A stretch of DNA of 32,000 nt, taken from NCBI GenBank assembly GCA_964648855.1, contig CAZYLT010000008.1, positions 30,001 to 62,000 of the forward strand. The letters are read 5' to 3'. The position numbers and the translations under genes were made by a program. The stretch is from an uncultured archaeon. Its GTDB lineage: Archaea > Asgardarchaeota > Thorarchaeia > Thorarchaeales > Thorarchaeaceae. How positions within the stretch are numbered: position 1 is the stretch's first letter; each line of letters begins with the position of its first letter. Shown in pieces: positions 1 to 1,897 of the stretch. A model generated the notes under the pieces. That model was not told the DNA's origin. It saw nothing but the letters and a program-made list of their open reading frames with translations, and did not search any database.

Positions 1-1597
1 GGGATGCATAGAACTTGAAGAATAGGTTGTAGAATAGTCCTACCTTGAAAGATTCTCCCTCGTGACCAAATGACGCTTGTGCCAAGATCCCTGTTTTTGC
101 TTTCAGCTTCACTCCTAGCTTTATGAAATCCAGGGGAAGGCTAACTCCTATGGCATCCTTGATGTAAGATGCCGGTGATGGCAAGCTAAGAGAGATATCA
201 AGACCAAATCCGACCTTTAGAGTGACATCTTGTTGTGACGCCTCTTTAGTGGCATTATAGTTCATCCCAAGCATAAGCGATAGATAGTTGACCAGATTCA
301 CTTTCATGTTCAAGAGGTCCATTATAGTAGTAACAGTTTTCCCCGTGCCAGGAATGAGGTAATCGAGAAAAGTTGCTAAGGGAATACCGAGCTCAAAGCC
401 GAAGTCAATGGAGAATGAACCCCCCATGAACTTGAATGGATTGCCAGCTATTGAAGGGTTGGCATCAGCAATCTGCTGAATGAAGTTGCCTATACGCAAA
501 GTAGCGCTGAGCTTTGGAGTTAGCTCCAGTGTAACAGAATATCCCGCAGCCTTGAAGACCTCCTTTAGCCCCAGGACCTCTGTCAGATCGAGCGAACCGT
601 CCTCTGCCTGTACAGTGAATACCAAATCAACATATTCTGGCATGTACCAGGGTCCAGTCCCAATACGAGGATCAACACCGAAATCGATGGGAATTTCGAA
701 TGGAAACTCACCTGTGTTCGAGTTTCCAGCACCCATCTTCTTCATCTCAATTGAGCCCTCACCAGTAGAGCCACTATTGATTTTTGATTCGTCGAAACTG
801 ACATGTGTTGAATTTGAGTCGTACCAATCGCCATAATCGAAGCCCGTAACAAGTAGTATCGTCATAAAGACATCAATAATCCAGCCCCATGGCCCGCGAG
901 AATCAGTTTCATCCTGTGTATAGTCAATATAGAAACCATCCAGTGAGTTCTTCGGACTAATTGTCCTTTGAATTATGGTGTTCAAATTGCTCAACAGATA
1001 GAAACTGGTTATGTCAAATAACTGATCAGAAATCTTCTGTCTTTTTGGTTCAGTTGATTTGAAGATCTCATATATTGAGCATAATGCTCCAAGTAGTGCT
1101 ATTTCAGCATCAATTGAACCCTGCAACGTATGAATGCTGTGTTCAGGTAGCATTTTACTAAGAATGCTGGAGTGACAGACTTGGAAGATATTATGCTCAA
1201 CATCAGCATTCTCCATAATTTTGCTCAAAGCCGTCCAAGATAAGACGTCTGAACCGATCTCCATTCCGCGTTGCGTCCCATGAAATACGTAGACATTCAT
1301 CTTGGAACCGCTCAGGCTACGAACAAAGTGTTCTTCTGACCATATTGGGATTCTTTGTGCAGATAAATCAGATTTCGACAACTCTTTGTAGAGCCTGTCC
1401 GCAGTTTTTCTGGAAATCCTGTCCATTGAATTGAAGAGAATCTTGACCAAATATCCATCATGAGAAGAATCAGCTTCAAACGCATCAGAATGTAAATGAA
1501 AACTTGGTTGAACAATTTCAGCTGAACTGACTGCAACAACTAATGGATTGACCAGCAAAGATAGAACTAGAAGTGTAGAATAGACCTTAACTCTCAT
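1..1597 (-). CDS. Large secreted protein (3' end beyond window) with signal peptide, caspase/CHAT-like (clan CD) cysteine protease-like domain and beta-rich C-terminal region
   Basis: Not in the ORF track. Manual translation from ATG 1597 is open for 532 codons to the window edge. It begins MRVKVYSTLLVLSLLVNPLVVAVSSAE (signal-peptide-like) and contains NVYVFHG (H106) and NIFQVCHS (C141). Confidence 0.85.
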   Translation of the reverse strand, partial: MRVKVYSTLLVLSLLVNPLVVAVSSAEIVQPSFHLHSDAFEADSSHDGYLVKILFNSMDRISRKTADRLYKELSKSDLSAQRIPIWSEEHFVRSLSGSKMNVYVFHGTQRGMEIGSDVLSWTALSKIMENADVEHNIFQVCHSSILSKMLPEHSIHTLQGSIDAEIALLGALCSIYEIFKSTEPKRQKISDQLFDITSFYLLSNLNTIIQRTISPKNSLDGFYIDYTQDETDSRGPWGWIIDVFMTILLVTGFDYGDWYDSNSTHVSFDESKINSGSTGEGSIEMKKMGAGNSNTGEFPFEIPIDFGVDPRIGTGPWYMPEYVDLVFTVQAEDGSLDLTEVLGLKEVFKAAGYSVTLELTPKLSATLRIGNFIQQIADANPSIAGNPFKFMGGSFSIDFGFELGIPLATFLDYLIPGTGKTVTTIMDLLNMKVNLVNYLSLMLGMNYNATKEASQQDVTLKVGFGLDISLSLPSPASYIKDAIGVSLPLDFIKLGVKLKAKTGILAQASFGHEGESFKVGLFYNLFFKFYAS

Positions 1598-1897
1598 GGT
1601 GTGACGCGTCCCTTTGGGTAATCTGAGTTATTTGGCGCTATTTATGTTCTACGTAAGATGGTTCTGACTAGTATTTTGATGTGGCGCTTGGATTGCATCG
1701 ATATCGGAAGATGCATCTAGGAGATACATTATCTTGAGCATGGCTATTTGTTTCACTTAGCTCGACTCCTTTCAACTAGGCACAATCAATATGGTCCACG
1801 TATCACCTAGTTTGCCAACTATAAGAATTAGAAGTCATTCTTAATAGTGGGTTTGACGCTCTGATTTTAGAAGGCACAAGACTTGGAGGAATGAGAT

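Follow-up and report, generated by a model that had tools for sequence, protein, structure and literature searches.

The cysteine peptidases of clan CD were reportedly defined by Chen and colleagues in 1998 by a pattern of His-Gly followed further on by a small residue and Cys. Cleavage after Arg is a property of many clan CD enzymes. Cell-bound clan CD peptidases are predicted for sediment archaea and are known from anaerobes, namely the gingipains RgpA and Kgp (family C25) of Porphyromonas gingivalis, which are secreted, are bound to the cell surface, and combine a clan CD domain close to the N-terminus with adhesin-type domains and a C-terminal anchoring signal. Here, a stretch of 32,000 nucleotides from an uncultured archaeon of the Thorarchaeaceae (the window; G000:C8:30001-62000) was analyzed, with a focus on the gene at its left edge. 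An open reading frame (ORF) on the minus strand begins with an ATG at nucleotide 1597 and runs past the left edge of the window, so that 532 amino acids are encoded inside it (2..1597). Upstream DNA was added, and the complete gene was found to comprise 1,573 codons (L002:12876-17597). The encoded protein carries an N-terminal domain, termed domain A (residues 50-215; 953..1450, minus strand), which is an alpha/beta sandwich of CHAT/caspase-like character according to a structural model and fold matches. The reading that is favored, with somewhat better than even confidence, is that domain A is a divergent, minimal cysteine peptidase of the clan CD (caspase-hemoglobinase) structural class that is closest to CHAT proteases, putatively catalytic and displayed at the tip of a stalk.

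An original prediction, which had been made from the letters of the window, had proposed a caspase/CHAT-like dyad in this frame. The ORF and all three segments that it had named, MNVYVFHG, GMEIGSDVLSWTALSKIM and NIFQVCHS, were found, with H106 at nucleotides 1282-1280 and C141 at nucleotides 1177-1175. The proposed catalytic His belongs to H106-G107 (1277..1282, minus strand), and the proposed nucleophile belongs to C141-H142-S143 (1169..1177, minus strand), which forms a C-x-S motif. The conservation of both residues, which had been named as a check of the dyad, was analyzed at two distances. In 20 orthologues with 39-76% identity, Y103, H106, G107, G111, W121, C141, S143 and D163 are invariant. 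For the wider family, 59 copies of domain A with a mean column identity of 17% were aligned. Both His and Cys are kept in 45 of them and both are lost in 13, while the His without the Cys is present in one copy and the Cys without the His in none, so that the two residues are coupled in evolution. Among the 45 live copies, the His and the Cys are present in all, the Gly after the His in 43 and the Ser of the C-x-S motif in 44. The distance from His to Cys is exactly 35 residues in 41 of the 45, in agreement with the predicted succession of a strand with His-Gly and, about 35 residues later, a strand-x-Cys. Residues 102-105 are hydrophobic in 87-96% and residues 137-138 in 100% of the live copies, and position 140, directly before the Cys, is occupied by S, V or A. 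The motif of domain A thus fits the definition of clan CD because of the His-Gly, the spacing, the hydrophobic blocks and the small residue that precedes the Cys.

A maximum-likelihood tree revealed that all 14 deviant copies belong to a single clade with a support of 100/99. In this dead clade the position of the Cys is fixed as Gly (in the form of G-N-A), while the former position of the His drifts between D, N, Q, G, E and H, which is the pattern expected for a His that matters only together with the Cys. W121, G111 and D163 are still conserved, and G111 and W121 are nearly invariant. D163, which is located after strand 5 (1109..1111, minus strand) and was identified in the alignment of the 59 copies, is kept in 55 of them, including the dead ones, and is therefore more likely to be structural or to take part in binding than to be catalytic. 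Because the dead clade keeps domain A, the domain should have a role beyond self-cleavage and catalysis, which implies a role in binding.

The structure of domain A was predicted with AlphaFold2 using the alignment of 59 sequences, which yielded a model of residues 50-215 with a pLDDT (predicted local distance difference test) value of about 97. The N-terminal part of the model consists of a strand, a helix, a strand, a helix and strand 3, which is followed directly by H106-G107. The rest comprises a hairpin (111-114 and 117-120), a helix (121-129), strand 4, directly followed by C141, a further helix, a short strand 5 and three helices. The hairpin and the helix between His and Cys (residues 111-129; 1211..1267, minus strand), which had been predicted before, are thus confirmed by the model. 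In the numbering of the model, strand 56-61 directly precedes the His and strand 91-96 directly precedes the Cys, and H106 and C141 would thus lie adjacent to one another, contributed by neighboring parallel strands.

The model was compared with known structures by two independent programs. In a Foldseek search against the PDB the top positions were occupied by five chains of the activated SAVED-CHAT filament (8tl0; E 3.4e-5), and below them caspase-6, -7, -9 and -3, legumain and the Craspase TPR-CHAT were found, mixed with flavodoxin-type proteins. VIA-align also placed the SAVED-CHAT protein 8tl0 at rank 1 with a score of 12.0, with 158 residues aligned at a root-mean-square deviation of 4.2 A, followed by a de novo Rossmann-like protein (10.9), legumain (9.7), lobes of periplasmic-binding/LacI proteins (9.7-8.5) and metacaspase 4 (9.0). 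For 8tl0, H375/C422 has been described as the catalytic dyad (bioRxiv 10.1101/2023.06.23.546230), and the aligned ranges, model 3-168 to residues 304-486 of the 8tl0 chain, allow H106 and C141 to fall on these two residues. A search of the ESM Atlas yielded leads only, with scores of at most 0.86, CHAT at rank 24 with 0.83 and DUF6345 at 0.79-0.84. The families C25 and C80, to which an affinity had been suggested as well, were not among the listed fold matches and had no Pfam match; their absence from the list does not exclude either family.

Several results weigh against a clan CD peptidase. Only five parallel strands are predicted, and the sixth, antiparallel strand of the caspase fold is missing, and so are all p10-like loops, from which caspases build their substrate groove. 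The TM-scores are low (about 0.4), and generic flavodoxin-like folds follow just 1-2 Z units below the clan CD matches. His and Cys were lost jointly just once in evolution, since all deviant copies belong to one clade, and this does not amount to repeated coupling. In addition, none of the sequence models of clan CD (C14, CHAT, C13, C25, C11, C80) matched any of the 59 copies at E <= 10. At this threshold neither the query nor the 59 copies matched CHAT (PF12770), Peptidase_C14 (PF00656) likewise failed to match the query or any copy, and Pfam and NCBIfam scans of the 532-residue piece, the whole protein and the paralogues yielded nothing for domain A or for the adjacent domain B. Profile comparisons with hhalign in local, greedy and global modes gave probabilities below 1% against Asgard C14 (10 sequences) and Asgard CHAT (2 sequences). 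The CHAT profile, with its two sequences only, failed to reach even 8tl0. Against the 10 C14 sequences the E values were 0.058-0.14 and thus not significant; the greedy path (E 0.14, likewise not significant) paired strand 1, FHG with SGHG and VCHS with SCHSGG in collinear order. The original prediction is thus supported in part: the predicted fold is closest to clan CD proteases, with CHAT first in two fold searches, while the number of strands and the closeness of the flavodoxin-like folds speak against it. Domain A was filed as a domain that would work like a clan CD peptidase and is probably a very divergent relative, and not as a member of CHAT, C14, C13, C25 or C80.

The same results are the basis of the alternative that survives best, which is rather unlikely on the whole. 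Domain A could be a non-proteolytic tip domain with a flavodoxin- or Rossmann-like scaffold, in which a metal or a small ligand is bound by H106 and C141, possibly with the help of H136 or D163, and which serves in adhesion or sensing. The narrow distance in Z to the generic folds and the missing sequence signal of clan CD would be in accord with such a domain, as would the adhesin-like layout of the protein, in which a repetitive stalk connects the tip domain with a C-terminal anchor, and the dead clade, whose retention of the domain with W121, G111 and D163 indicates a catalysis-independent role. However, a CHAT protease is at the top of both fold searches, and the clan CD matches cover more residues than any others, whereas only about 115-145 residues, fewer than for clan CD, can be aligned with the flavodoxin-like non-proteases (PurE, lobes of periplasmic-binding/LacI proteins and designed Rossmann 2x2 proteins), none of which has a His after strand 3 plus a Cys after strand 4. 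Domain A also shows traits that are specific to clan CD, namely the His ahead of the Cys, the motifs HG and C-x-S, the hydrophobic blocks and a spacer made of a hairpin and a helix. Furthermore, the two ligands His and Cys would make a poor metal site, and H136 is not invariant, as the query has an N at this position.

The layout of the whole protein is in agreement with a location outside the cell. A signal peptide comprises residues 1-26 (1520..1597, minus strand), with a cleavage-like site AVS-SA, and its hydrophobic segment spans residues 3-29. This segment and a C-terminal transmembrane helix are the only strongly hydrophobic segments of the protein. The predicted export, with domain A at the N-terminus of a large surface protein, was thus confirmed at the level of the sequence. 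Domain A is followed by a linker (residues 216-290; 728..952, minus strand), which contains a low-confidence loop (224-236) with R234-G235 and a conserved GPWGW helix, and by domain B, of which residues 291-532 are encoded in the window (2..727, minus strand) and which extends to about residue 560; these boundaries were drawn from conservation and modelling. The remainder of the gene is located to the left of the window (G000:C8:26876-30000, equivalent to L002:12876-16000) and encodes the end of domain B, TSP3 repeats (residues ~570-1440, about 870 amino acids), a C-terminal domain (residues ~1440-1545) and the transmembrane helix (residues ~1547-1569, within a hydrophobic segment ~1543-1572), which is followed by a KKRK tail. 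The TSP3 repeats, of the bacterial type (PF18884; E 3.2e-17, 6 stretches), were the sole part of the whole protein that was recognized by Pfam; residues 570-1440 contain 25 DxDxD[GN] motifs and 25% Asp plus Glu, and repeated calcium-binding units of the type DxDxDGxxDxxE are present. For residues 1-570, in contrast, no match was found in Pfam, NCBIfam or the PDB sequences (best PDB sequence/profile search E 0.2). The surface protein is predicted to be of type I topology and to expose about 1,520 residues on the outside.

An element ACATAAATAG is present at window positions 1637-1647 (minus strand), about 45 nucleotides upstream of the ATG in a divergent intergenic region of 300 nucleotides; by eye only, it is a possible archaeal TATA box. 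An ORF of 118 amino acids (480-836, plus strand) is antisense to domain B and recurs in orthologous loci. It was rejected as a real gene and is regarded as the shadow of a strongly conserved gene on the opposite strand.

The following mechanism is proposed for the favored reading, i.e., a displayed clan CD-class peptidase. The protein would be exported via its signal peptide, and the C-terminal helix would anchor it in the cell membrane. Domain A would then be located outside the cell at the far end of the calcium-binding TSP3 stalk of about 870 residues, beside a barrel-like beta domain. In the proposed dyad C141 would be the nucleophile, with H106 as the general base, and the displayed peptidase would cut extracellular polypeptides, either detrital proteins or surface proteins of neighboring cells, and perhaps its own chain as well. 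Family-wide signal peptides and extracellular partner domains support the clan CD reading. Within it, action in trans has the larger share, which taken by itself is tentative, while self-processing only has the smaller share and would by itself be doubtful. A peptidase for external polypeptides is favored because domain A heads many unrelated extracellular architectures that do not share a downstream cleavage motif, because the pseudo-enzyme clade has kept the domain, which implies a binding role, and because cell-bound clan CD peptidases are known or predicted in anaerobes and sediment archaea.

The first two of these points argue at the same time against a purely cis-acting autoprocessing module, which would cut its own chain and thereby set free or activate either the stalk or the head, domain B, in a similar way as in gingipain maturation or the MARTX C80 domain. 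Such a module is improbable, but some features are in its favor. Domain A comes immediately after the signal peptide, and strand 1 is followed by acidic residues (D59, and D56 in most copies). R234-G235, in the low-confidence loop just past domain A, is kept in 19 of 20 close orthologues and fits the cleavage after Arg by many clan CD enzymes. It is the only candidate site if self-processing takes place. However, distant homologues that still contain domains A and B have S, V, N or K instead of R234, and no C80 or C25 structure was among the listed fold matches. As R234 is not conserved beyond the close orthologues, the idea of a universal Arg-Gly autoprocessing site was rejected.

For domain B, a model of residues 222-568 was generated with 28 sequences (pLDDT 76). 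It contains about ten antiparallel strands of 10-20 residues, most of them 15-20 residues long, with short helices in the loops. One face of each strand is strongly hydrophobic (Kyte-Doolittle values of +2 to +3), and the other is rich in K, D, S, T and G. The model suggests an amphipathic, barrel-like beta domain with no clear relative. Domains A and B could conceivably form a two-part head that acts on another cell. The caspase-like domain A would activate or partner domain B, which resembles an outer-membrane barrel and, extended on the long stalk stiffened by calcium, would insert into the outer membrane of a bacterium that serves as partner or prey. This idea is very improbable; if it were true, it would mean that Asgard archaea use protease-gated tethering to, or permeabilizing of, syntrophic bacteria, and it would be relevant to models of the contact between the ancestor of eukaryotes and its bacterial partner. 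The most improbable proposal is a transpeptidase or ligase like PIG-K (the glycosylphosphatidylinositol transamidase) or the plant asparaginyl ligases (C13), which would covalently link surface proteins to one another or to the envelope of a partner, because the PIG-K/C13 matches were no better than those of hydrolases, no ligase-specific feature was seen, although none was tested for, and no acceptor or sorting motif was identified.

The distribution of domain A was analyzed by several searches. A word-indexed search retrieved 19 full-length orthologues with 39-76% identity, and the named ones belong to Thor-, Loki- and Hodarchaeales. An exhaustive phmmer search of 1.84 billion representatives found 34 proteins only, and a single-protein scan found four orthologous loci. 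When the protein was searched against 400 genomes of the phylum, it was revealed that domain A alone recurs at 20-35% identity and heads many other open frames of 174 to 13,746 amino acids. With the profile of 59 sequences, the superfamily was found in 155 of the 400 Asgard genomes and in 51 of 85 genera, and the highest copy number in one genome was at least seven. Nearly all family representatives have a signal-peptide-like start, and many end with a transmembrane helix and a basic tail. The partner domains are of extracellular types, with TSP3 in 11 of 27 and also PKD, NosD/beta-helix, dockerin and Big_1. Named members include Lokiarchaeum ossiferum, Helarchaeota and one Thermoplasmatota bin. 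Homologues in GenBank are labeled "hypothetical protein", while a paralogue of L. ossiferum has been named "Caspase family protein" automatically by UniRef, a name that is not backed by any hidden Markov model run. No description of the family was found in the literature that was searched. Domain A thus appears to define a previously undescribed, Asgard-wide extracellular family that is missed by current family models.

Individual members of the family showed additional features. The same genome encodes a second domain A protein on contig 16 (G000:C16:1916-2479), in an open frame of 2,173 amino acids (L068:1300-3564, plus strand); this copy belongs to the dead clade and carries ALNS instead of FHG and MGNT instead of CxS. 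A live-type domain A of another Asgard genome (G128:C3:1040956-1041561, L048) heads the open frame of 13,746 amino acids, which would encode a giant surface protein. The closest orthologue (76% identity; P0002, L004:517-4668, plus strand) has been called with 1,799 amino acids in a frame that is open for 1,871 amino acids, and it has about 230 extra N-terminal residues with methyltransferase domains. As a Met and a signal peptide are present further on, where the start of the surface protein would be expected, the call probably reflects either read-through from a methyltransferase gene upstream into the gene for the surface protein or an artefact of gene calling. Two further copies contain a single in-frame stop, a TGA (G019:C75:92245-92670, L021) and a TAG (G321:C76:10438-11019), and may be pseudogenes or contain sequencing errors.

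The genes in the neighborhood encode a copper P-type ATPase, a Ras-family GTPase and a PAS histidine kinase. The gene for the Ras-family small GTPase (PF00071, E 5.6e-43) is located to the left of the window at L002:9114-9740 (plus strand; G000:C8:23114-23740), about 3 kb past the 3'-end of the surface-protein gene. Such genes are typical of Asgard genomes. No conserved neighbor gene that could encode a partner, an inhibitor or a substrate was found at the orthologous loci, where only the antisense shadow ORF and a weak Ras-like similarity recurred; one orthologue (L072) adjoins a weakly similar GTPase-like ORF. The names of the homologues (Thor-, Loki-, Hel- and Hodarchaeales) and the neighboring Ras-family GTPase gene support an Asgard origin of the DNA, which had been considered probable from the letters.

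Provided that domain A is active, Asgard archaea would have, on the outside of their cells, a large family of caspase/CHAT-like proteases that is specific to their lineage and often present in several copies per genome. The domain is located at the tips of the largest surface proteins of Asgard archaea, through which the cells meet detrital protein as well as the bacteria that the cultured species need as partners. In Lokiarchaeum or Prometheoarchaeum the conserved Cys, with its predicted reactivity, would be a direct point of attack for activity-based probes, for mutants and for the profiling of substrates. A minimal, five-stranded version with a pseudo-enzyme clade of its own would also be added to the clan CD-like domains that are known. 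In contrast, the finding says little about the origin of eukaryotic caspases, on which it had been expected to bear. Canonical Peptidase_C14 genes above the family cut-off were found in 10 of the 21 Asgard genomes searched, and CHAT genes in two of the 21, while no canonical Peptidase_C14 was found in the source genome. As related Asgard genomes carry canonical C14 genes, which are far closer to the eukaryotic metacaspases than domain A, a link to the origin of eukaryotic caspases is not supported.

Among the known systems, CHAT (PF12770) is the most similar, and the SAVED-CHAT protein of Haliangium ochraceum (8tl0) is the best structural match with both Foldseek and VIA-align; the TPR-CHAT protein Csx29 of Craspase (7zoq) is a further CHAT protease among the fold matches. 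Domain A and CHAT share the succession of a strand with H-G, a hairpin plus helix and a strand with a small residue and C-x-[ST]. However, the distance from His to Cys is 47 residues in CHAT and 35 in domain A, which has neither a PF12770 match nor a predicted sixth strand, and the CHAT proteases are cytoplasmic, sensor-coupled defense enzymes, while domain A would be extracellular at the N-terminal tip of surface proteins. The caspases and metacaspases (C14, PF00656), of which caspases 3, 6, 7 and 9 and metacaspase 4 are among the fold matches, have the His and the Cys in the same order and placement, and in an Asgard C14 protein (L054) the distance between the two is 36 residues, nearly that of domain A. 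In contrast to C14, which is cytoplasmic, domain A is predicted to be secreted, and it lacks a match to the hidden Markov model, the p10-like part, the sixth strand and the SGHG and CxSGG motifs. Legumain and PIG-K (C13) have no sequence match, and neither their specific third catalytic residue (Asn) nor their prodomain was identified in domain A. The C80 domain of MARTX and the large clostridial toxins, the analogy originally put forward, is a clan CD fold that autoprocesses a giant secreted protein; however, it is internal and is activated by inositol hexakisphosphate inside the eukaryotic host cell, and nothing comparable was seen in the domain A protein. The gingipains and the domain A protein share the same architectural idea, which in the latter, with no match to PF01364, is realized with a TSP3 stalk and a transmembrane anchor.
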